Positions 2,660-32,947 of a DNA stretch of 41,118 nucleotides are shown here, piece by piece (position 1 is the first letter of the stretch; the number at the start of each line of letters is the position of its first letter). Under the pieces are notes generated by a model. That model did not search any database. It was not told the DNA's origin and saw nothing but the letters and a program-made list of their open reading frames with translations. The DNA is taken from positions 1 to 41,118 of the forward strand of contig CAZOXG010000002.1 of NCBI GenBank assembly GCA_964583845.1, given 5' to 3'. Source of the DNA: an uncultured Candidatus Saccharibacteria bacterium (GTDB taxonomy: Bacteria; Patescibacteriota; Minisyncoccia; Phycocordibacterales; GWA1-40-21). The position numbers were made by a program, and so were the translations under genes.

Positions 2660-2832
2660 CGCGGGAAGCAACCTCTGGGAGAGGTTGCGTGAGGACTTGA
2701 AAGGCGGAGCAAATTTTTGATAGTAGTCAAAAATGCGAGCCGGGGTCGAGAAATTTTACGAGCGACGGCGAGTAAAATATTCGTGACCAAGTCCTCTCCT
2801 TAAAGTCGAGGGAAAGACTCCTCTCCCGCGCA
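2659..2832 (-). mobile_element. gene-3'-end-associated mini-element, copy A (type-1 core), behind tRNA-Leu(UAG)
   Basis: Minus-strand core is GTCACGAATATTTTAC-TCGCCGTCGCTC-GTAAAATTTCTCGACCCCGGCTCG-hairpin-CTCCGCCTTTCAAGTCCTC. Inverted tRNA 3'-end pieces at 2659-2665 and 2691-2701. Direct copies at 2788-2799 and 2818-2832. Confidence 0.8.
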
Positions 2833-2945: not shown

Positions 2946-3635
2946 ATGAAAAATAAAATTACTAGTTTGGTTGGCGCCATTTTCTTTTTTCTTGGTATCG
3001 GCATACTTATAGGGGGGATTTTCGAATACAAGAGCAACCAGCAATTCCTTCAATCGTCCCAAAAAAGTACTGGAATTGTTACAGATTTAATTCTTGGTGA
3101 TTCTGTTTACTACCCAGTGCTACAATTCCGTACACTTGCAAATAAGACAATTGATTTTAAATCATCAGTAGGTAGCAATCCTCCCTCGTATCGAGTAGGA
3201 GATACTGTGGAAATTTATTACAATCCGACGGATCCATATTCAGCAAAAATATCTGATTTCTGGTCGAATTGGTTTGGAGTTATAATCACTGGTTTTCTTG
3301 GCACTATATTCACGTTTTTGGGTGGAATATTTCTAGGCAGTATGATCAGATCTAGTATGAAGAAAAAATGGTTGTTACAATATGGAAAAAGGATTTCTTC
3401 CGAATTTCAAAAAGTAGAAATAAATGAAAGTTTCTCTGCTAACGGAATTCATCCTTACATTATCGTAAGTCAGTGGCAAGACCCAGAAACCAGAACAATT
3501 CATATCTTTAAAAGTGAAAATATTATGTATAATCCAGAAAAATATATTACTAATAAAAGTATAGATGTGTTAGTAGATCCCATGAATTGTAAAAAATATT
3601 ATACGGACATTAGTTTCTTGCCAAAGTCAGAGTGA
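2946..3635 (+). CDS. DUF3592-like membrane protein (by-eye call)
   Basis: ORF 2907..3635. The ATG at 2946 gives MKNKITSLVG plus a TM. GDTVEIYYNPTDP and a second TM fit the DUF3592 layout. Backbone-like low G+C. Confidence 0.55.
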   Translation: MKNKITSLVGAIFFFLGIGILIGGIFEYKSNQQFLQSSQKSTGIVTDLILGDSVYYPVLQFRTLANKTIDFKSSVGSNPPSYRVGDTVEIYYNPTDPYSAKISDFWSNWFGVIITGFLGTIFTFLGGIFLGSMIRSSMKKKWLLQYGKRISSEFQKVEINESFSANGIHPYIIVSQWQDPETRTIHIFKSENIMYNPEKYITNKSIDVLVDPMNCKKYYTDISFLPKSE

Positions 3636-3778: not shown

Positions 3779-3976
3779 AGTAGGAATTTCTTCCTCGACT
3801 AAAACTTCGTCGTCGGGCCACAAAGGCCACTTCCATTTTCTAACACGGAGTACCGTGAAGAAAATCAGGTCGCTCGGTTTTGTCTGGGCACGCTCTCGCA
3901 TGACTTTCTACTGAAAGTCATTGGCTCCGAGCTTCGAATCCTACTCGCAAGTGATAACATCACTTGCTTGGGTGCA
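3779..3976 (+). mobile_element. mini-element copy C1 (type-2 core variant), behind tRNA-Lys
   Basis: Left arm AGTAGGAATT. The core shares GGTCGCTCGGTTT..TGGGCACGC.TC-hairpin-CTCCGAGCT with copy G2. Right arm is TTCGAATCCTAC, then a 24-nt inserted hairpin, then TGGGTGCA, which is the tRNA-Lys 3' half in inverted orientation. Confidence 0.65.
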
Positions 3977-4014
3977 CAATTAAAAAAACTGCTACGCGCA
4001 GTTTTTTTTAATTG
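3977..4014. terminator. bidirectional terminator shared by copy C1 and tRNA-Lys
   Basis: CAATTAAAAAAACTGC-TACG-CGCAGTTTTTTTTAATTG palindrome. Confidence 0.65.
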
Positions 4015-4087
4015 TGCACCCAGTAGGATTCGAACCTACGACCTTGTCCTTAAGAGGGACCTGCTCTACCAACTGAGCTATGGATGC
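4015..4087 (-). tRNA. tRNA-Lys (anticodon CUU), no encoded CCA
   Basis: Minus-strand cloverleaf: acceptor GCATCCA/TGGGTGC, anticodon loop CTCTTAA, T arm with TTCGAAT loop. Confidence 0.9.
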
Positions 4088-5121: not shown

Positions 5122-5379
5122 GTGCCCAGGATGGGACTCGGTCAGGAATAATTTTCTTATCGACACAAGAAAATTTTCACGACCATTACATGGTCAGTAC
5201 ACCATTTTGGATATTTTATTTCGTTACACTCATAAAATATCTCACAAGGTCTTTCGGTTGGGTCCCTTACCCAATCCTCAACCTGCCTCGCGGCTGGGCA
5301 TTGCTATACCCAGACCCTCTGCCTAAGAAAAATCGGCAAAGGGTACGCTCCGCTTTTCGAGTTCCACCCTATCGGGCAC
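5122..5379 (+). mobile_element. mini-element copy D1 (composite/nested), outer copy behind tRNA-Leu(UAA)
   Basis: Left arm GTGCCCAGGATGGGACTCG matches the tRNA gene strand at 17/19. Then GTCAGGAATAATTTTCTT-ATCGACAC-AAGAAAATTTTCACGACC. A nested second core-like unit lies at about 5192-5245. Right arm is TTCGAGTTCCACCC-TAT-CGGGCAC. Confidence 0.7.
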
Positions 5380-5395
5380 ATACAAAAAAACAGCT

Positions 5396-5480
5396 TGGTG
5401 GACTCGGTCACAGGTTTTTGCTTGCTAGCAAAACCCGCGACCCCGACTCGGCCCGTCGGCCTCCGTCTTTCGAGTCCCAC
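5396..5480 (+). mobile_element. mini-element copy D2 (short type-1 core), inner copy behind tRNA-Leu(UAA)
   Basis: TGGTGGACTCG|GTCACAGGTTTTTGCTTGCTAGCAAAACCCGCGACCCCGACTCGGCCCGTCGGCCTCCGTCTT|TCGAGTCCCAC. Confidence 0.75.
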
Positions 5481-5481
5481 G

Positions 5482-5520
5482 ACCAAAACAAAAACGGCCA
5501 TAAGCCGTTTTTGTTTTGGT
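5482..5520. terminator. bidirectional terminator, overlaps the CCA end of tRNA-Leu(UAA)
   Basis: ACCAAAACAAAAACGGC-CATAA-GCCGTTTTTGTTTTGGT perfect palindrome. Confidence 0.7.
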
Positions 5521-5602
5521 GCCCGGGGTGGGACTCGAACCCGCACGGTGTTACCACCGAAAGATTTTAAGTCTTTTGCGTCTACCATTCCGCCACCCGG
5601 GC
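5517..5602 (-). tRNA. tRNA-Leu (anticodon UAA), type II, CCA encoded
   Basis: Acceptor GCCCGGG/CCCGGGC, anticodon stem AAAGA/TCTTT, loop CTTAAAA, T loop TTCGAGT, 3' ACCA. Confidence 0.92.
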
Positions 5603-5767: not shown

Positions 5768-5770
5768 TTG

Positions 5771-5842
5771 AGGCCTAGGGCAGAATCGAACTGCCGTATA
5801 GAGATTTTGCAGATCTCTGCCTTACCACTTGGCTACTAGGCC
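5771..5842 (-). tRNA. tRNA-Cys (anticodon GCA), discriminator U, no CCA
   Basis: Acceptor GGCCTAG/CTAGGCC, anticodon loop CTGCAAA, T arm GGCAG-TTCGATT-CTGCC. Confidence 0.92.
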
Positions 5843-14901: not shown

Positions 14902-15005
14902 ACGGAACTCCTTTGCTTTTGTTTACACTGTAAGGCAGTGTTGACCTCTTACGGACTACATACACAGCCGAGTTCTGTCGTACAAGACAGAAGATATCTA
15001 ATCGA

Positions 15006-15034
15006 AGAATACTTTAGGTTATCGACTGTGTCAA
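15006..15034 (-). promoter_or_regulatory. sigma70-type promoter of the 152-aa gene
   Basis: Minus strand TTGACA (15029-15034), 17-nt spacer, TATTCT (15006-15011). Confidence 0.55.
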
Positions 15035-15082
15035 GAATAGAAAAAATACATTTGTAATTTAGACTTTTTGCATATTTTGCTT

Positions 15083-15199
15083 GGAAAGGATTTGGTCATG
15101 GATAATTCACTAGTCGTCTCTCGTGAATTTCCACGACCCTGACTCGGCCACACTACCTGCTGGCAGTGGCTTCGCGGCCTCCGTCTTTCAAATCCTTCC
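15083..15199 (+). mobile_element. mini-element copy E (type-1 core), behind tRNA-Tyr
   Basis: GGAAAGGATTTG|GTCATGGATAATTCAC-TAGTCGTCTCTC-GTGAATTTCCACGACCCTGACTCGGCC-hairpin-GCGGCCTCCGTCTT|TCAAATCCTTCC. Confidence 0.8.
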
Positions 15200-15205
15200 T
15201 TGAGC

Positions 15206-15275
15206 AAAATTGGTTTCTTAACCAATTTTACAAAAGAAAAACACCAGTTTAATAATAAACCGGTGTTTTCTTTTG
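15206..15275. terminator. two consecutive AT-rich hairpins between copy E and tRNA-Tyr
   Basis: AAAATTGGT-TTCTTA-ACCAATTTT, then GAAAAACACC..GGTGTTTTC flanked by A-run and T-run. Confidence 0.55.
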
Positions 15276-15359
15276 TGCGCAGGGAAGGATTTGAACCTTC
15301 GTAGTCCATTGGACGATTGATTTACAGTCAATTGCGATTGACCACTCCGCCACCTGCGC
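15276..15359 (-). tRNA. tRNA-Tyr (anticodon GUA), type II, no CCA
   Basis: Acceptor GCGCAGG/CCTGCGC, anticodon loop CTGTAAA, long variable arm, T arm GAAGG-TTCAAAT-CCTTC. Confidence 0.92.
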
Positions 15360-15482
15360 AATGGGGAGATTATAAAGCCTTTTTTTAAAAAAGACAAGAG
15401 GACTTGCTTATAGGTTTACCTAGTGTTAATTTTAATATAGAAAAACAAAGTACAAACAGTGCCAAAAGGGAAAGGAAGTGTA

Positions 15483-19338: not shown

Positions 19339-19462
19339 ATCAGATTCGGTCACGACTTTTTCTTTCGCCGTCGCTCAAGAAAAGTCTCGACCCTAGCTCA
19401 GCATTACTCGCTGGAGCTCGTAATAAGCTTGCGCTTTTCGAATCTGAGTGGGCCCGCATATT
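19339..19462 (+). mobile_element. mini-element copy F (type-1 core), behind tRNA-Trp
   Basis: CATCAGATTCG|GTCACGACTTTTTCTT-TCGCCGTCGCTC-AAGAAAAGTCTCGACCCTAGCTCAG-hairpin-CTTGCGCTTT|TCGAATCTGAGTGGGCCCGCATATT. The 26-nt right arm is a perfect inverted copy of the tRNA 3' half. Confidence 0.85.
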
Positions 19463-19489
19463 AAAAAAACTGCTTATTAGTAGTTTTTT
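19463..19489. terminator. AT-only hairpin at the centre of the 26-nt inverted repeat
   Basis: AAAAAACT/AGTTTTTT stem. The flanking arms extend the palindrome to 19437-19515. Confidence 0.6.
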
Positions 19490-19495
19490 AATATG

Positions 19496-19567
19496 CGGGC
19501 CCACTCAGATTCGAACTGAGAACCTCGCGTTTGGAGTGCGATGTTTTACCATTGAAACTATGGACCC
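19496..19567 (-). tRNA. tRNA-Trp (anticodon CCA), no encoded CCA end
   Basis: Acceptor GGGTCCA/TGGGCCC, anticodon stem TCGCA/CGCGA (imperfect), loop CTCCAAA, T arm CTCAG-TTCGAAT-CTGAG. Confidence 0.9.
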
Positions 19568-21736: not shown

Positions 21737-21858
21737 TGCCGGATAGAGGACTCGCCCGCACCTCTCGTTTCGCCGTCGCTCAACTCGGTTTGGGCACCGC
21801 CTCACATTTTTGACTACTGTCAAAAATAGGTTCCGGCGTTCGAGTCTCTCTCCCGGCA
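21737..21858 (+). mobile_element. mini-element copy G2 (type-2 core), inner copy behind tRNA-Leu(CAA)
   Basis: TGCCGGATAGAGGACTCG|CCCGCACCTCTCGTTTCGCCGTCGCTCAACTCGGTTTGGGCACCGCCTCA-CATTTTTGACTACTGTCAAAAAT-AGGTTCCGGCGT|TCGAGTCTCTCTCCCGGCA. Confidence 0.8.
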
Positions 21859-21898
21859 CAAAAGAAAAACACTGGAATATTCCAGTGTTTTTCTTTTG
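21859..21898. terminator. bidirectional terminator between copy G2 and tRNA-Leu(CAA)
   Basis: CAAAAGAAAAACACTGG-AATATT-CCAGTGTTTTTCTTTTG perfect palindrome. Confidence 0.75.
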
Positions 21899-21981
21899 TG
21901 CCGGGAGAGAGACTCGAACTCTCACAGTGTTGCCACCGGTGGATTTTGAGTCCACTGCGTCTGCCATTCCGCCATCCCGGC
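21899..21981 (-). tRNA. tRNA-Leu (anticodon CAA), type II, no CCA
   Basis: Acceptor GCCGGGA/TCCCGGC, anticodon stem GTGGA/TCCAC, loop CTCAAAA, T arm GAGAG-TTCGAGT-CTCTC. Confidence 0.92.
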
Positions 21982-26291: not shown

Positions 26292-26372
26292 TTGTTGGTC
26301 TCCTTAGAATTGTTTGTCGTGCAGAAGAATTGCCTTCTGCTAATCCAAAAACACTATAACATTTTTTATTAG

Positions 26373-26424
26373 AAATGGCAAATTAAAACCCCACACCAGG
26401 ACTTCCGAAGGGAAGTGAGTTGGT
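26373..26424 (-). repeat. 52-bp direct repeat, copy 1 (terminator hairpin plus -35 box)
   Basis: AAATGGCAAATTAAAACCCCACACCAGGACTTCCGAAGGGAAGTGAGTTGGT. 49/52 identical to 28199-28250. On the minus strand: hairpin ACTTCC-CTTC-GGAAGT, then GGGGTTTTAATTTGCCA. Confidence 0.85.
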
Positions 26425-26446: not shown

Positions 26447-28123
26447 TTATTTTCCTGGAGAAAAAGCCTGATCAAAATCAATTAAATATAACCTAGGAAA
26501 ACGATTAAAATCTGGTTTACCATTTTCATTTCTAAAAAATCTTAGACAAAAGTTGCCATCGTGAGGGTGACCATGTTCAAAATTTATACTACTTAACACC
26601 GCCTTTATTTTATTTTTTTGTTCTTCAAGTTCAGATTCAAATTTAGTTGATATTTCTTTCCACCTAGCCAAACTAAGATCTAAGACTCCACTATACACCC
26701 TAATTGAACCATTCTTATTAATGCTAAATGATTGGATTGGTTCTATTGGAACGTAATCAAAACCAGCCTGCTGCCACAGTTTCCAATTCTCATATATAGA
26801 TTGCCACGATAGAAAAGCTTCTGGTGTAATTTCTCTTATTATCGTTTTGTCTTTTAAGTCACCACCAAGTAAAATAGTTTCTGAACCTGTCTTATCAAAA
26901 TTAGCTCGAGAGAATTTTTCTTTTCTTACTGCTCCATTTTTGTATAATGCTGGTTTAATCAAGTATTCTTCTAAACCTTTTTCCTTCATTAATTTATACA
27001 ACCCTTTCCTTTCATTTTTGGGAATATAGTCAATCATTCCAATTGATGAGGTTTGCACTTTAGGATCAACACTTTCTAAACTCTGTCTAATCCTTAGTAA
27101 AACATTCTTCCACAAGGAAGGCTTTTCCGGCTCAGAGACAAAATTAATGTTATCAACTGATAGTATTTGAATCTCTAGATTTGAATGAGACAAACCTTCC
27201 CTGATAAGACTAGCTCTCTCATTTACAGGAGCAAACCGAATATTTTCAGCCGATATTTTTTGTACTTCTGGGTTAGGGTGATTAAAACCGTCTTTAATAA
27301 GGAGTGTTATTTCATCTTTGGGAGCATCGCCCATCATTAAAGCTGATGTAATTTGAACTTCTGGATTTGAATGAGACAAACCTTCTCTAATAAGTGTTGA
27401 TCTTTCGTCTCCAAATGCTCTTTCAATTATTTTAACTGATTCCACCTGAACTTTTGGGTTAGGGTGTTTTAAACATTCTCTAATAAGATTAGCTATCATA
27501 TTTTCAGGAGCAAACCGAATATTTTCAGCCGATATTTTTTGTACTTCTGGATTAGAGTGATTTAAACCTTCTTCAATAAGCGATAATGTTTTAGTTACTG
27601 GAGCATTGTCCAATAATTTGGCCGATGTAATTTGAACTTCGGAGTCAGTACTATTTAATCCATTTTTGATTTTTTGTAAAACAATTTCTCGCAGAAAACC
27701 CTTTTGAGTTTTAGGTGCAAACCAAATAGTTTCAGACGAAATTATTTGTACTTCTGGGTTGAGATGACTTAGACCTTCTTCAATAAGTGGTGTTATCTCA
27801 TCTTCTGATATAAATTTAATAGCCTCGGCTGCTGCTTTTTGCACCTCAGGGTCAGAATTAGCTAAGCCTTCTTTAATAAGAAAGAATGTTTTTGAGTTAG
27901 GAGTGAATAGACTTTCATTAATTTCATGCACCAAAGGTGAAATTTTCTTCTCTTTATTTTTAGTAATAATTAAATCAATCTTCTCATTATTTCTAATTTT
28001 ATCCTCTTTGTATCTATCAAAACTATGTTCAGTTATCTGATTTTGCCCAGGAATTTCATACATTTTCAAATATTTTGGTAGTGGTGACTCAGGACTTTCA
28101 ATTTTTTGCACAGGTCTTTCCAT
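26447..28123 (-). CDS. HEAT-repeat protein (about 9 repeats of ~31 aa) with a C-terminal protein-kinase-like domain
   Basis: Repeats of EGLxHxNPEVQxxSAxxIxFAP. The C-terminus has HGHPHDGNFCL (catalytic-loop-like) and LYLIDFDQA (DFD). The ATG at 28123 is preferred (MERPVQ). Low G+C. Confidence 0.7.
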   Translation of the reverse strand: MERPVQKIESPESPLPKYLKMYEIPGQNQITEHSFDRYKEDKIRNNEKIDLIITKNKEKKISPLVHEINESLFTPNSKTFFLIKEGLANSDPEVQKAAAEAIKFISEDEITPLIEEGLSHLNPEVQIISSETIWFAPKTQKGFLREIVLQKIKNGLNSTDSEVQITSAKLLDNAPVTKTLSLIEEGLNHSNPEVQKISAENIRFAPENMIANLIRECLKHPNPKVQVESVKIIERAFGDERSTLIREGLSHSNPEVQITSALMMGDAPKDEITLLIKDGFNHPNPEVQKISAENIRFAPVNERASLIREGLSHSNLEIQILSVDNINFVSEPEKPSLWKNVLLRIRQSLESVDPKVQTSSIGMIDYIPKNERKGLYKLMKEKGLEEYLIKPALYKNGAVRKEKFSRANFDKTGSETILLGGDLKDKTIIREITPEAFLSWQSIYENWKLWQQAGFDYVPIEPIQSFSINKNGSIRVYSGVLDLSLARWKEISTKFESELEEQKNKIKAVLSSINFEHGHPHDGNFCLRFFRNENGKPDFNRFPRLYLIDFDQAFSPGK

Positions 28124-28198
28124 AGAAGAAATATAGCATAAAACTATATTAGTTTCGAATTTTGATAAAATATAAAAGTGTATATGGTAAGGCAATAA

Positions 28199-28250
28199 AA
28201 ATGGCAAATTAAAACCCCACACCAGGACTTCCGAGGGGAAGTGAACTGGT
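28199..28250 (-). repeat. 52-bp direct repeat, copy 2
   Basis: See 26373-26424. Lies 17 nt past the stop of 28268..28795 and supplies TTGCCA as the -35 box for the HEAT gene. Confidence 0.85.
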
Positions 28251-28267: not shown

Positions 28268-28795
28268 TCATGATAGTTTGTTGAAGAGTTCGGAGGCAAT
28301 TTTGACCGCCTTGAGTTCGTCATCAAACATGGTGATACCCTCAAGTGGGGCTCCGGCCATCATCATTTCCTTGGTTGCGATTCTCACGTTGGGCAGGTCT
28401 CCCCGGTGGATTTTGACCAGGCCACCGGTGCTGGGGCCGAGTCTAATCCAGTCGAGCGATTCAAGGGAGACCACACACCCGAAGGTGGTCATCTCTTTCT
28501 TGTTAGTGACCAAAGTCACCAATTCGGTCAGTCCGGTTTCTTCGCCAATCCTTTTGATGTGGTCGGCGAAATGTGGGCCGAGTTCTTCTTCAATTTCACG
28601 CATCAGACCGGCAATAGGAGTTTCGCCGGCATTGAGTTTGCCGTGGCAAGTGACTTGTGTCACGCCAGCAAAGAGTGAAGGGCTCATTTCACGTTCGGTG
28701 CTATAGGCACCACGTTTTTGACCAATCGCGACCATCTGTCCATCAAGGTCCGTGATGAGAACAATCAGTCCGGCACCTTTTTCTTTTTCCGACAT
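28268..28795 (-). CDS. Nudix hydrolase-like protein with intact Nudix box (paralogue A, higher GC)
   Basis: 175 aa with AAGGAGA 7 nt before the ATG. GKLNAGETPIAGLMREIEEELG fits GX5EX7REUXEEXG. Confidence 0.75.
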   Translation of the reverse strand: MSEKEKGAGLIVLITDLDGQMVAIGQKRGAYSTEREMSPSLFAGVTQVTCHGKLNAGETPIAGLMREIEEELGPHFADHIKRIGEETGLTELVTLVTNKKEMTTFGCVVSLESLDWIRLGPSTGGLVKIHRGDLPNVRIATKEMMMAGAPLEGITMFDDELKAVKIASELFNKLS

Positions 28796-30411: not shown

Positions 30412-30495
30412 TTATTTTGTGTCTGCAACCTCAGCCAGTTTATGTGGATTATGATTAGGACAATTCTTATCACTACATCTATCTGGTATGGTCTT
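30412..30495 (-). pseudogene. displaced 3'-terminal fragment of topA (27 codons plus stop)
   Basis: Minus-strand translation is KTIPDRCSDKNCPNHNPHKLAEVADTK*. The first 20 aa are identical to the end of intact TopA, with 12/60 nt different and all differences synonymous. Confidence 0.8.
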
Positions 30496-30497
30496 TG

Positions 30498-30628: not shown

Positions 30629-32824
30629 TTAGTTTGTTAATTTATGCGGATTATGATTCGGACAATTCTTATCAGAACAGCGATCGGGAATAGTTTTTGT
30701 GCCAACCATCATCAACTCACCACATAACTTACATTTTTCTCCAGTTGGTTTAGTTTTGATTATATATTTGCAATCAGGATAATTTGAACAACTATAGAAA
30801 ATTCCAAATCGTCCACGCTTTTCAGTCATCATACCTTTTTTACACTTTGGACATTCAACACCAGTGGAGTTCAATCTCTCCATTTCTTTATCTTTTTTTA
30901 TAAACTTACATTTCGGATAATTACCACAAGCGATAAACTTACCAAATTTTCCTTCACGTTCAAACAAGTTTGATTTACCACATTGCGGGCAAAGTTCACC
31001 AGTATCTTTTGGTCCCGCAATTTCAATTCCGTCCATTTTAAGTGCTCCTTGACACTCTGGATATTTGGCGCAACTCAAAAACTTGCCAGTGCGTCCAAGC
31101 TTGATCACCATCGGTCCTTTACAAACTGGGCATTTAAATTCGGCACCTGCTTCACCAAGATTAGTAATTTTTTCTACTCCTTCTTTAGCCTTAACATCTG
31201 CTAAGAACGGGCCATAAAAATCCTTCAAAGTTTTGACGTATTGAGCTGTTCCGTTGGCAATATTGTCCAGTTTGTCTTCCATGTCGGCGGTAAAAGTATC
31301 ACTGATATATTTGCCAAAATTATCTTCCAAGAAAGTACTGACAGTCTCACCGGTGTCAGTTGGTTTGAGAGCTCTTTCTATTTTTTCAACATAACCACGA
31401 TCCTGAATCGTCTTAATAATAGAAGCATAAGTAGAAGGACGGCCAATACCTCTTTTTTCTAATTCTTTAATCAAACCCGCTTCAGTATAACGTGGTGGTG
31501 GTTCGGTACTTTTTTCCTGATCTTTAATTTCAATTAGTTTAAGAGTCTCACCAACAGTGATACTTGGTAGTTCTACATCTTCACCACGAGCCTGAGGGTC
31601 GGCGATTAACCAACCGTCAAAGATAACGCGGGACCCATTGGCGGTAAAATCTGGAATCTCACCAGTACCAATTTTTACAATTATTTTACTACGAGCGATT
31701 TTGGCATCAGTCATCTGAGAAGCCACAGTTCTTTGCCAAATCAATTTATAAAGTTTGGCTTGTTCAGGTGTAAAACGAGAACTAGTTTCTAAAGCAAAGT
31801 TAGTTGGACGGATGGCTTCGTGAGCTTCTTGGGCATTTTTACTTTTGGCAGCGAAAGTGCGAGGAGATAAATAATTTTCTCCATAGTTAGTTTTTATAGT
31901 TGCAAAGATTTTTTCTTGAGCTTCTTTGGAAAGGTTGGTACTGTCCGTACGCATATAACTGATGAAACCACCTTCGTAAAGTTTTTGAGCAATACTCATG
32001 GTTCGAGCCGGAGCAAAACCAAGACGGGAAGAAGCAGTTTGTTGCAAGGTGGAAGTGATGAATGGGGCTTTTGGTTGACGTTTAGCTTCGGTTTCATTTA
32101 GATCAGAAATCACCCAGGAATTTGTTTTGCCATAAGCAACAATACGTTTCATTTCTTCTTCGGTTTTTGGTTTTTCTTCACACTCTAAAGGCAAAGGTAA
32201 CTTTTTTGTGGTTTCAGTATCGGCAGTTATCACCCAATATTTTTCAGGAACAAATGCGCGAACTTCACGTTCGCGCTCTACAATAATACGTAGGGCTGGT
32301 GACTGAACACGTCCAGCGGATAGTCCGTAGCGAACTTTTTTCCAAATCAAACCAGAGAGATCGTAACCAACGAGACGATCTAAAACACGGCGAGCTTCTT
32401 GAGCTTGGCGTAAGTTCTCGTCAATTAAGCGTGGGTGAGTCAAAGCTTCTTCGATCGCGGATTTCGTGATTTCATGAAAAGCCACACGTTTTGGATTATG
32501 AAGACCAATAGCCTCCTTCAAATGCCAAGCAATTGCTTCACCTTCACGGTCGGGGTCAGTCGCAAGTAAAACTTCTTCTGCTTCACTAGAGAGTTTTTTT
32601 AATTCCGCGACCACTTTTTCTTTGCCCGGAGAAATTTCGTAAGTGGGAACGAAGCCTGCGGGAATATCAATCGCCTTTTTGTTACTTTTTGGTAAGTCAC
32701 GAATATGACCGATACTTGCCTTTACTATATAACCTTCACCGGCATATTTGGTTATTGTGTTGGCTTTGGCAGGGGACTCCACGATCAATAATTTAAAACT
32801 TTTTGGTGAACTTGTATTACTCAT
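30629..32824 (-). CDS. topA: DNA topoisomerase I with four C-terminal zinc ribbons
   Basis: Toprim start LLIVESPAKA, type IA core, and four CxxC..CxxC modules. The ATG at 32824 is preferred over the TTG at 32833. Confidence 0.93.
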   Translation of the reverse strand: MSNTSSPKSFKLLIVESPAKANTITKYAGEGYIVKASIGHIRDLPKSNKKAIDIPAGFVPTYEISPGKEKVVAELKKLSSEAEEVLLATDPDREGEAIAWHLKEAIGLHNPKRVAFHEITKSAIEEALTHPRLIDENLRQAQEARRVLDRLVGYDLSGLIWKKVRYGLSAGRVQSPALRIIVEREREVRAFVPEKYWVITADTETTKKLPLPLECEEKPKTEEEMKRIVAYGKTNSWVISDLNETEAKRQPKAPFITSTLQQTASSRLGFAPARTMSIAQKLYEGGFISYMRTDSTNLSKEAQEKIFATIKTNYGENYLSPRTFAAKSKNAQEAHEAIRPTNFALETSSRFTPEQAKLYKLIWQRTVASQMTDAKIARSKIIVKIGTGEIPDFTANGSRVIFDGWLIADPQARGEDVELPSITVGETLKLIEIKDQEKSTEPPPRYTEAGLIKELEKRGIGRPSTYASIIKTIQDRGYVEKIERALKPTDTGETVSTFLEDNFGKYISDTFTADMEDKLDNIANGTAQYVKTLKDFYGPFLADVKAKEGVEKITNLGEAGAEFKCPVCKGPMVIKLGRTGKFLSCAKYPECQGALKMDGIEIAGPKDTGELCPQCGKSNLFEREGKFGKFIACGNYPKCKFIKKDKEMERLNSTGVECPKCKKGMMTEKRGRFGIFYSCSNYPDCKYIIKTKPTGEKCKLCGELMMVGTKTIPDRCSDKNCPNHNPHKLTN

Positions 32825-32947
32825 TTCCAACAAGTATTACACGAAAATATCAAAACAGGCAAATTTTTGAAAAGTTTTGGTGAATAATTTTCGCACTTTT
32901 TTTAATAATATTGTATAATGAAACGGAAACTTATTGTTATTAAACTT

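Follow-up and report, generated by a model that had tools for sequence, protein, structure and literature searches.

A candidate family of gene-less, folded elements joined to tRNA genes at the T-loop in Patescibacteria

Islands and prophages lodged in tRNA and tmRNA genes, the latter being the other classical target of integrases, are catalogued in Islander, and the attP core of mycobacteriophage Ms6 lies in the T-loop of tRNA-Ala. Folded single-stranded recombination sites are known from the attC sites of integrons (57-141 nt) and from the attP(+) hairpin of the CTX phage (XerCD). Among small repeats, the miniature elements derived from IS200/IS605 (PATEs) and the REP elements are mobilised by Y1/HUH transposases and insert 3' of a tetranucleotide without target duplication. 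The genomes of Patescibacteria are thought to be poor in mobile DNA. A regenerated gene with a displaced 3' fragment at a tRNA or tmRNA locus is presented in PMC4383910 and PMC1762012 as a mark of integrase-borne islands.

We analysed a feature of 117 bases (plus-strand positions 15083-15199) downstream of tRNA-Tyr(GTA) in a stretch of 41,118 nucleotides from an uncultured Candidatus Saccharibacteria bacterium, here called the window. The feature is one copy of an apparently undescribed family of gene-less folded elements of Patescibacteria (CPR bacteria). The locus is made up of the following parts, where X' denotes the inverted arm and R1 a covariance model whose E-values are rough.

15275..15359, minus strand: intact tRNA-Tyr(GTA), by ARAGORN, Rfam (64 bits) and sequence
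15295, 15293 and 15293 down to 15276, minus strand: landmarks of tRNA-Tyr by sequence, namely T54, C56 and the near X (C56 to the discriminator)
15237..15270, minus strand: intrinsic terminator right after tRNA-Tyr, by terminator scan
15206..15229, minus strand: AAAATTGGTT-AAGA-AACCAATTTT, a second small hairpin, located after the terminator and before the inverted arm, by sequence
15187..15206, minus strand: inverted arm X' of the focal copy, plus-strand TTCAAATCCTTCCTTGAGCA, which equals tRNA-Tyr from T54 to the discriminator with 2 mismatches
15095..15186, minus strand: conserved core of the focal copy (R1, 97.6 bits, E 5e-29)
15077..15094, minus strand: far-side direct copy of the 3' part of tRNA-Tyr, starting at C56 (CAAATCCTTTCCAAGCA), 12/18 identical and 9 contiguous

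On the tRNA strand, the far junction of the focal copy reads CATGAC joined to CAAATCCTTTCC, the reverse complement of plus-strand positions 15083-15100, and its near side reads CTCCGTCT then TTCAAATCCTTCC on the plus strand at 15180-15199. The X' arm is identical at 16 of 18 positions, 11 of them contiguous from C56, and is complementary on the tRNA strand to the 3' part of the tRNA. Between the arms the core runs, on the same strand, through AGACGGA, hairpin P3 (15146-15179), GAGUCAG and hairpin P2 (15094-15138). The base of P2 is GGUCG/UGACC with an invariant G.U pair, and P3 is closed by a 3-bp helix (GAC/GUC) across a GGA/GA internal loop. The far-side copy pairs with X' into a helix, P1, that closes a three-way junction. 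On the tRNA strand the predicted fold has an energy of -57.6 kcal/mol (z -7.8); for the opposite strand the value is -46.1 kcal/mol (z -4.2). No promoter-like site was found in front of the focal copy; a strong terminator stands there instead. This terminator probably came in with the element, to judge from relatives, in which orthologous sites are found both empty and occupied and the empty tRNA-Leu and tRNA-Trp sites have none.

R1 recovered 10 copies in the window, including one at the 3' end of topA, with E-values (rough ones, as stated) from 8e-33 to 0.02.

15081-15200, minus strand: focal copy by tRNA-Tyr, R1 extent
2688..2801, plus strand: copy A, behind tRNA-Leu(TAG) (2546-2627), R1 109.6 bits
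3869..3946, minus strand: divergent copy behind tRNA-Lys(CTT) (4014-4087), R1 13.7 bits, E 0.02
5123..5385, minus strand: copy D1, outer of a tandem pair behind tRNA-Leu(TAA), R1 36 bits over 5127-5231
5393..5482, minus strand: copy D2 (short type), inner of the pair, behind tRNA-Leu(TAA) (5517-5602), R1 77.9 bits
5625..5744, minus strand: copy B, behind tRNA-Cys (5770-5842), R1 80.6 bits
19335..19450, minus strand: copy F, behind tRNA-Trp (19495-19567), R1 95.9 bits
21603..21722, minus strand: copy G1, outer of a tandem pair behind tRNA-Leu(CAA), R1 84.2 bits
21741..21852, minus strand: copy G2 (divergent type), inner of the pair behind tRNA-Leu(CAA), R1 38.6 bits
30484..30598, minus strand: copy at the 3' end of topA, R1 67.3 bits

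All seven tRNAs of the window carry a copy downstream, and every tRNA-associated copy found by R1 lies on the same strand as its neighbouring tRNA. Each of the seven is also followed, 40-300 nt downstream, by an inverted copy of its own T-loop and 3' T-stem strand, matching at 12 of 12 positions in six cases and at 11 of 12 behind tRNA-Leu(TAG), which bears out the near-side arm claimed in a preliminary description of this DNA. A degenerate seed pattern taken from the common middle part matched the window six times, compared with 0.00 matches expected from shuffles. Individual copies vary around this plan. In copy A, a branch hairpin (2666-2690) interrupts X' precisely where the acceptor part meets the T-stem part; the Lys copy has a branch hairpin at 3946-3967 and an exact 12-nt inverted T-arm at 3933-3944. 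Copy D1 holds about 150 nt of extra sequence in place of P3, and the far copy of B has a 1-nt deletion (C-ATTCTGC). In copy F, X' together with the trailer repeats the tRNA end perfectly, in inverted orientation, over 32 nt (19437-19468 / 19484-19515), while G2 and the 3' end of tRNA-Leu(CAA) (21898-21981) make up a perfect 41-nt palindrome with no spacer (21838-21919). The open reading frames of the window hold no integrase domain and no recombinase, transposase or reverse transcriptase. Extended flanks of the source contig likewise yielded no recombinase; they carry pilin-like genes and GyrA.

A pattern search of one genome per species returned at least 120 loci, nearly all of them in Patescibacteria; because the pattern was seeded from the window copies, divergent subfamilies such as the window's own G2 and Lys copies are under-sampled in this count. 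The hosts among the matches listed are Saccharibacteria, Paceibacterota, Nomura-, Kaiser-, Zambryski-, Yonath- and Taylorbacteria, with a few Elusimicrobia. One complete genome of Patescibacteria, CP066682.1, has at least two copies. A handful of the pattern matches look like chance. Among the matches listed, 91 of 101 at loci with a tRNA lie no more than 400 nt downstream of one, the sequence adjoining the core copies the T-arm of that neighbouring tRNA, at least 17 tRNA types are targeted, and six apparent orphans sit just behind tmRNA genes.

The elements are 90-140 nt long, with a core of 60-110 nt, and contain no open reading frame. On the tRNA strand, their parts follow one another in a set order: intact tRNA, short trailer, terminator hairpin, X', GAAAG-RC-GGAG, P3, CGAG-YY-RG, P2 and the direct tRNA copy from C56. 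The base of P2 is GGUCG/UGACC and the core ends in ..GUGAC; GAAA, GGGUCG and UGAC are invariant. X' corresponds, in reverse complement, to the part of the tRNA that starts at T54 or C56, with a modal contiguous match of 9-10 nt, and its complementarity to the gene from C56 is reliable for 6-10 nt. Its acceptor part may be kept, lost, or set apart by a branch hairpin placed exactly between the acceptor and T-stem parts. The shared sequence is thus internal, and the arms, derived from the target, differ with each tRNA. A complete tRNA and a terminator stand ahead of every tRNA-associated copy, and the far copy lies about 120-300 nt from the tRNA end.

This family is absent from the collections that were searched. 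Only tRNAs passed the Rfam gathering thresholds over the whole window, and Rfam gave nothing on the element within 15000-15400 at E up to 10. Comparison by eye revealed no likeness to the hammerhead, hairpin, twister, pistol, hatchet or HDV cores. No match was found in 2.9 million viral contigs, nor in phage and plasmid collections, and no description of the element turned up in the literature searched, which included one survey of MITEs that does not contain it. A LOOT RNA lies beside two copies and is unrelated in sequence and structure. Clustering of the open reading frames within 2.5 kb of 115 copies, in search of a partner gene, gave housekeeping genes and one HTH-plus-YWAEG family, with no cluster of recombinases, transposases or reverse transcriptases. 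That family was not established as the mobilising enzyme: it lies upstream of tRNAs, occurs also without the element and is absent from the window. No Y1/HUH transposase was found in the 8-41 kb pieces of the genomes examined, nor was any free or circular form of the element seen.

The junction with the displaced gene end lies between T55 and C56. In 54 of the 64 recognisable copies among the matches listed outside the window, the far-side direct copy starts exactly at C56, right after ..TGAC, with an ambiguity of 1 nt in that the junction C may also be read as the last base of the P2 helix (GGUCG/UGACC) and TTC is universal. Two more copies among the matches listed start at C56 after a 14-nt insert (CGAAAGTGTACTCA); because these carry both Cs, they argue that the direct copy does start at C56. 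From C56 to the discriminator, among the matches listed, the copy is identical to the gene at 18 of 18 positions in 26 of 88 loci beyond the window and at 17 of 18 in another 10 of the 88, and the rest are progressively degraded. The direct repeat spans 18 to about 60 nt, with its 5' edge fixed at C56 and a variable 3' edge that often lies a few bases into the trailer. At one locus (L035), a perfect 47-nt direct repeat covering the whole terminator surrounds an imperfect X' and the core.

The preliminary description had quoted seven junction strings from the window, all of which are in the sequence as claimed, and had concluded that the far junction is fixed at the C of TTC. The wider set agrees, with 54 of 64 copies among the matches listed starting exactly at C56 and two more doing so after the insert. 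It had also named two ways in which this conclusion might fail. Scatter of the breakpoints was one, and none was seen among the matches listed, given the same 54 of 64 copies at C56. The other was that the match might reflect nothing beyond the universal TTCRANY consensus; the match extends further, since positions 61-73 agree with the cognate tRNA at 8.80 of 13 positions among the matches listed, compared with 5.13 (sd 0.17) for shuffled partners.

That description had treated the middle of the element as a passive core, a view that did not survive structural analysis. RNAalifold, applied to an alignment of 64 copies, gave a three-way junction of 28 pairs, with compensatory changes at 21 of them, conserved on the tRNA strand and containing one G.U pair in 64 of 64 sequences. 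In this alignment 93.7% of pairing cells are filled by pairs, versus 71.8% in shuffles. The covariation score is 0.60, versus 0.20 in shuffled controls, which keep phylogenetic relatedness in, and 0.08-0.14 with slid partners, which take it out. The pair next to the invariant G.U alternates between G-C (33 sequences) and G.U (24), and the 3-bp helix closing P3 between G-C (33) and A-U (30). P2 is stabler on the tRNA strand in 120 of 122 copies among the matches listed, with a mean energy of -21.1 kcal/mol versus -15.5 on the other strand, and each P2 hairpin has on average 1.5 G.U pairs on the tRNA strand versus 0.16 on the other. Mismatches in P1 are A.C as often as G.U, which makes P1 a closing helix without wobble bias. 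These sequence patterns point to a fold that has been selected on one strand, either as RNA or as single-stranded DNA. We also considered that the element might be read on the strand opposite the tRNA, as an RNA with a tRNA-like 3' end, and rejected this because 120 of 122 copies are stabler on the tRNA strand and the G.U pairs are found there.

Comparison with relatives, suggested earlier as a check on the crossover, was possible at loci anchored on MiaA (at most 63% amino-acid identity), 80 of which keep the order tRNA-Leu(CAA), miaA, ..., tRNA-Trp. All relatives are metagenome-assembled. Copies are present on only 30 of the 119 syntenic tRNAs of these relatives. At empty sites the tRNA runs straight into the next gene with no terminator, as in locus L129 (...GGCAC AAAAAA ATG). 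At occupied sites it is followed by terminator, X', core and old tRNA end, and then by the same short spacer and miaA start as in the empty state. Because the empty orthologous sites have no terminator, the terminator belongs within the inserted unit, which would consist of terminator, inverted arm and core and probably includes a replacement 3' end of the gene. The preliminary description had missed that the inverted arm and the terminator belong to the unit.

Several copies bear traces of how they spread. Pairs of inner and outer copies behind one tRNA occur in the window (D2/D1 and G2/G1) and at three loci elsewhere (L161, L122 and L126), as expected if new insertions strike the functional T-loop and push older copies outward. 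Among the matches listed, the cores closest to those of the window belong to copies at different tRNA types in other genomes; the Leu(TAG) copy, for example, is 84% identical to a Gly(GCC) copy at locus L010. X' is carried by the element rather than copied at insertion, because it is imperfect in 35 of the 36 copies with a perfect far repeat (among the matches listed) and because the X' of locus L121 matches a different allele of Leu(CAA). Pairing of X' in the Glu subfamily is confined to its T-loop part.

Other features bear on what happens after insertion. Old copies have retained the first 6-10 nt of the far arm, but the rest of that arm has decayed towards A and T (locus L128), and three genomes with diverged cores have a perfect far copy in the Glu(CTC) subfamily. 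Both suggest selection on the integrated structure and sit more easily with a function in the host or as RNA than with a fossil insertion. Beside decayed far copies there are near-side palindromes that are perfect over 32-41 nt, trailer included, and these need selection or conversion. Such signs on integrated copies keep alive the rival explanations by a functional transcript or an intron-like RNA, which are weighed below.

The copy at topA has no tRNA beside it. The topA open reading frame (30629-32833, minus strand, with TopA domains) ends in a near copy of its last 20 codons (30641-30699), and a far copy of these codons lies at 30439-30497, with the element between the two. The near gene end reads …KTIPDRCSDKNCPNHNPHKL-TN and a stop, followed by a terminator; X' is the 9-nt TAGTTTTTG, the complement of CAAAAACTA, with which the near copy starts. 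The core ends in GTGAC, and the far copy begins with CAAAGACC and encodes the same 20 residues, then AEVADTK and a stop, beyond which the original terminator forms a second one. The pseudo-site begins with CAAA, and the bases 5' of the junction are CA at topA versus TT in tRNA. The same layout was found at two further loci (L033 and L154), where, as in the window, the near tails are alike (LTN, LTK and LAK, each before the stop) and the far tails host-specific. The far copies show varying decay, and the one at L033 is frameshifted. In the window, near and far copies differ at 12 of 60 nucleotides, all synonymously, including multi-step changes of Arg, Ser and Leu codons. With 12 synonymous and 0 non-synonymous changes, plain duplication in place followed by neutral decay was rejected. 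This leaves two possibilities, that the element brought the near end with it from a diverged donor or that selection acts on both copies. Because the near tails are common to three genomes, the near copy looks imported rather than duplicated in place.

Taking these observations together, we judge somewhat better than even the prospects of a reading in which the feature is a miniature, site-specific mobile element without open reading frame that acts at the T-loop. The preliminary description had argued for a site-specific mechanism there, of the kind used by tRNA-targeting integrases. What stands of that argument is the reproducible, tRNA-specific and non-random breakpoint and the architecture of a tDNA integration; no integrase or open reading frame was found to go with it. 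Roughly half of the credence that we give to this reading goes to a version in which the element acts as a folded single strand. An ordinary integrase working on double-stranded att sites would not suffice, because it leaves the strand-specific fold unexplained. The mobile unit would consist of the replacement 3' end, terminator, X' and core, about 150-250 nt in all. In single-stranded form, its 3' end would pair with X' through the terminator hairpin and so form a rod imitating the double-stranded target, with the core as its cap. A recombinase or nuclease encoded elsewhere might then recognise the GGUCG/UGACC core helix with its G.U or G.T wobble and exchange one strand, ..GAC/C56 of the element for T55/C56 of the gene, homology being tested by pairing with X'. 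The 6-10 nt that are always complementary would be about the length of a crossover region plus half-site, by the logic of the integron attC and the folded attP of the CTX phage. The gene would stay functional with the 3' end and terminator supplied by the element, and the displaced gene end would then decay, except for the 6-10 nt that pair with X'.

Other explanations were weighed against this one. The element might encode a structured non-coding RNA that serves the host in connection with the neighbouring tRNA, an X'-core-X transcript being made by read-through of the terminator; its closing helix would reproduce the cognate T-arm or acceptor sequence, and the RNA could take part in processing of the tRNA end or act towards 3' fragments of tRNA as mimic, decoy or sensor, and duplication of the tRNA end would be just how new copies arise. 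The strong covariation, with an invariant G.U and a second position alternating between G-C and G.U on the tRNA strand, speaks for such an RNA, as do the phylum-wide conservation of the junction sequences, a copy at each of the seven window tRNAs, the retention of the inner 6-10 bp of the closing helix while the far arm decays, and, within the Glu(CTC) subfamily, far copies that follow the tRNA to which they belong. However, a copy present at only 30 of 119 orthologous tRNAs is dispensable for each of them, no promoter-like site but a strong terminator lies ahead of the element, and a tRNA-related role would be senseless at the 3' end of topA. Mismatches of the closing helix also lack the wobble bias of an RNA, A.C being as frequent as G.U, and tandem and truncated copies exist. 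We regard this explanation as doubtful, if a serious contender. A self-guided mobile nucleic acid, which we consider unlikely, would be a single-stranded circle or RNA of about 150-250 nt, folded into a rod, with arms that resemble the target or pair with it; its three-way junction would set its own 3' end at T55/C56 and catalyse or direct strand transfer with minimal help from proteins. Target specificity would then be reprogrammed by changing X' alone, across 17 tRNA types, tmRNA and topA, and the element would represent a new class of guide-directed mobile element that replaces gene ends.

A quite improbable alternative is an intron-like RNA in the T-loop with both "splice sites" at 55/56, such that read-through transcripts lose the near 3' end, terminator, X' and core; the far copy would be the 3' exon of read-through, the near copy would be used by terminated transcripts, and both would be selected. 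This would explain the many perfect far copies (26 of 88 among the matches listed) and the topA far copy that keeps 20 codons despite 12 nucleotide changes, and X' could act as an internal guide pairing with the 3' exon. Yet the core of 60-110 nt is far below the size of group I or II introns, and the ribozyme and intron families gave no match to it at E up to 10; many of the far copies have decayed beyond what a working tRNA would allow, and that of topA at L033 is frameshifted; the gene is complete without splicing. Replication errors without dedicated machinery would have the terminator palindrome prime fold-back synthesis that copies the tRNA end in inverted form, and template switches at near-universal T-loop microhomology (TTCGAATC) bring the core from elsewhere and then return. 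Perfect palindromes, including the spacer-less 41-nt one that runs through a non-functional trailer, would follow naturally, as would junctions in the most conserved tRNA segment and a direct repeat of variable length (18 to about 60 nt). We nevertheless hold such a by-product to be very unlikely: the junction is sharp to 1 nt in 54 of 64 copies among the matches listed, the core is conserved by covariation phylum-wide, X' is imperfect in young copies and hence not freshly copied, and the terminator is imported. The topA target, which has no T-loop, further suggests that the junction does not depend on microhomology. Least probable of all, and barely credible to us, are scars of large islands or prophages inserted into T-loops by tyrosine integrases and later deleted down to attL/attR remnants. 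The targets, tRNA and tmRNA, would be the right ones, and a regenerated gene with a displaced 3' fragment recalls tDNA islands as they are defined in PMC4383910. Against this, the same structured core of 90-140 nt lies between the repeats at well over 100 loci in many classes, no larger form or integrase adjoins the 115 copies examined, viral contigs and phage and plasmid collections gave no match, and independent deletions would not leave a conserved, covarying fold.

If the feature is indeed a site-specific mobile element, Patescibacteria carry an abundant mobile element of an uncatalogued kind, with 10 copies in the 41 kb of this window alone, that gives tRNA, tmRNA and even topA genes new 3' ends and terminators and leaves them unharmed. 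It would be a compact natural case of site-specific insertion at one bond by means of a target-matching arm, a principle that could be programmable. In CPR metagenomes, the element accounts for "pseudogenes" made of tRNA fragments and probably for some of the breaks in assemblies, and the covariance model R1 would improve annotation. It also raises the question of which enzyme recognises the wobble helix GGUCG/UGACC next to the T-loop.

Among described systems, the tDNA islands of tyrosine integrases share with this family the tRNA and tmRNA targets, the restored gene, the displaced direct repeat, the junction in the T-loop and accretion in tandem. Unlike them, the element inserts about 150-250 nt, some 100 times less, with no kilobase cargo; it contains no integrase, no open reading frame fitting in 90-250 nt; the space between its repeats is taken up by an inverted target copy and by a fold that covaries and forms on a single strand; and one family serves at least 17 tRNA types. 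The integron attC and the CTX attP offer an analogy in that structure is kept on one strand, inverted sequences pair to mimic a duplex target, the size is small and the fixed point appears to lie at the foot of a helix. However, the attC consensus RYYYAAC...GTTRRRY is absent, the invariants here being GAAA, GGGUCG and UGAC, the target is the T-loop and not attI or dif, and the arms of the element are specific to each target gene.

PATEs and REP elements resemble it in having no open reading frame, a length of about 100 nt, strand-specific subterminal hairpins, no terminal inverted repeats of their own, a position downstream of genes and many copies per genome. In contrast to these, the core is flanked here by a direct repeat of 18-60 nt and an inverted copy of the target, and no common short target word precedes the junction, where the bases are TT in tRNA versus CA in topA. 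Classical MITEs (Correia, RUP and BOX) are likewise small, non-autonomous and repeated, and often carry terminator or promoter activity; the present element differs from them in that no element-specific terminal inverted repeats are common to all copies, the arms coming from the target, in a duplication that is long and variable at its 3' edge rather than short and fixed, and in a site that is a single phosphodiester bond within a gene. Unlike group I and II introns in tRNA genes, it leaves the gene uninterrupted, and splicing is not needed. We therefore place it among the elements that integrate into tRNA and tmRNA genes, as a miniature form with a single-strand structure and no integrase.

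In some copies of the element, a separate hairpin module splits the inverted arm exactly between its acceptor part and its T-stem part. This branch hairpin, flanked by AC...T, has a 9-bp stem with covariation and a conserved tetraloop that reads CUGC on the tRNA strand and GCAG on the opposite strand. The site that it occupies in the inverted arm is the place of the D and anticodon arms in a real tRNA. It was found twice in the window and in many of the compared loci from other genomes or assemblies (L-numbers):

Window 2666-2690, branch hairpin in the inverted arm
Window 3946-3967, branch hairpin in the inverted arm
Other loci, branch hairpin, for example in L042, L061, L082, L085, L088, and L099

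The core and its far junction vary as well. One subfamily carries a conserved insert of 13-14 nt (CGAAAGTGTACTCA and variants) that separates the core end ..GTGACC from the direct copy of the tRNA 3' end, with the start of this direct copy unchanged at C56 of the T-loop:

Insert-bearing subfamily, L006, L017, L043, L046, L071, L097, L102, L104, L113, L149, and L192

Behind tRNA-Leu(CAA), four copies from related genomes (L128, L131, L130, and L033) share near-identical terminator and inverted-arm segments (AAATAAGAAATTCCCTnnnnGGGAATTTTTTTGT) and have different core subtypes, long and short. It looks as if cores had been swapped between conserved flanks. In copy D1, the outer member of the tandem pair behind tRNA-Leu(TAA) (window 5123-5385, minus strand), hairpin P3 is replaced by some 150 nt of sequence that is unrelated and looks non-coding, perhaps a nested insertion or else a large P3 variant.

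Elusimicrobia assemblies contain element copies of 76-81% G+C downstream of tRNA-Arg(TCG), and the far repeats of these copies are perfect or match at 17 of 18 positions; the family therefore extends beyond Patescibacteria and low-GC genomes:

L051 2681-2793, Elusimicrobia element copy
L056 6304-6417, Elusimicrobia element copy

Two further kinds of repeat occur in the window. A 55-nt direct repeat (26370-26424 and 28196-28250, 93% identity) has a small hairpin (ACTTCC-GAAG-GGAAGT) within it. One of its copies sits just beyond the 3' end of a HEAT-repeat ORF (26447-28222), and the other lies beyond the 3' end of a NUDIX ORF (28268-28795), overlapping the start of the HEAT ORF; the repeat may be a terminator-like module or another gene-end duplication. 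The 93-nt tandem repeats at 27134-27804 (61-84% identity), within the ORF at 26447-28222, are the HEAT repeats of the protein, that is, ordinary coding repeats. In other assemblies of the same organism the region is split into contigs of 2.7-11 kb that carry window proteins (L209, L210, and L212; L211 is a contig of 10.9 kb), and the repeated elements may contribute to these breaks.

A CPR-wide protein family of ~225 aa with more than 2,500 relatives, not encoded in the 41-kb window, has an HTH at its N-terminus and the motif LxxxLYWAEG(S/T)K at its C-terminus. The family's sole Pfam match is a weak one to HTH_23, and one UniRef name starts with "Homing endonuc...". A tRNA gene lies 0-4 nt downstream of the family gene or is overlapped by it, usually in the order dnaX, LYWAEG-family gene, tRNA-Gln(TTG), and there are cases with and cases without an element behind this tRNA:

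L201 2501-3190, LYWAEG-family gene, tRNA at 3194-3267 (example from L201-L208)
L084 1281-1973, LYWAEG-family gene
L138 7640-8032, LYWAEG-family gene
L004 6634-7305, LYWAEG-family gene
L083 661-1326, LYWAEG-family gene

LOOT RNA (Rfam RF03000), whose kinship with the element was rejected as neither sequence nor structure is related, is close to element copies in two loci, in L085 immediately 3' of tmRNA and element on the same strand:

L085 2057-2175, minus strand, LOOT RNA, 71 bits
L014 3852-3985, plus strand, LOOT RNA, 64 bits
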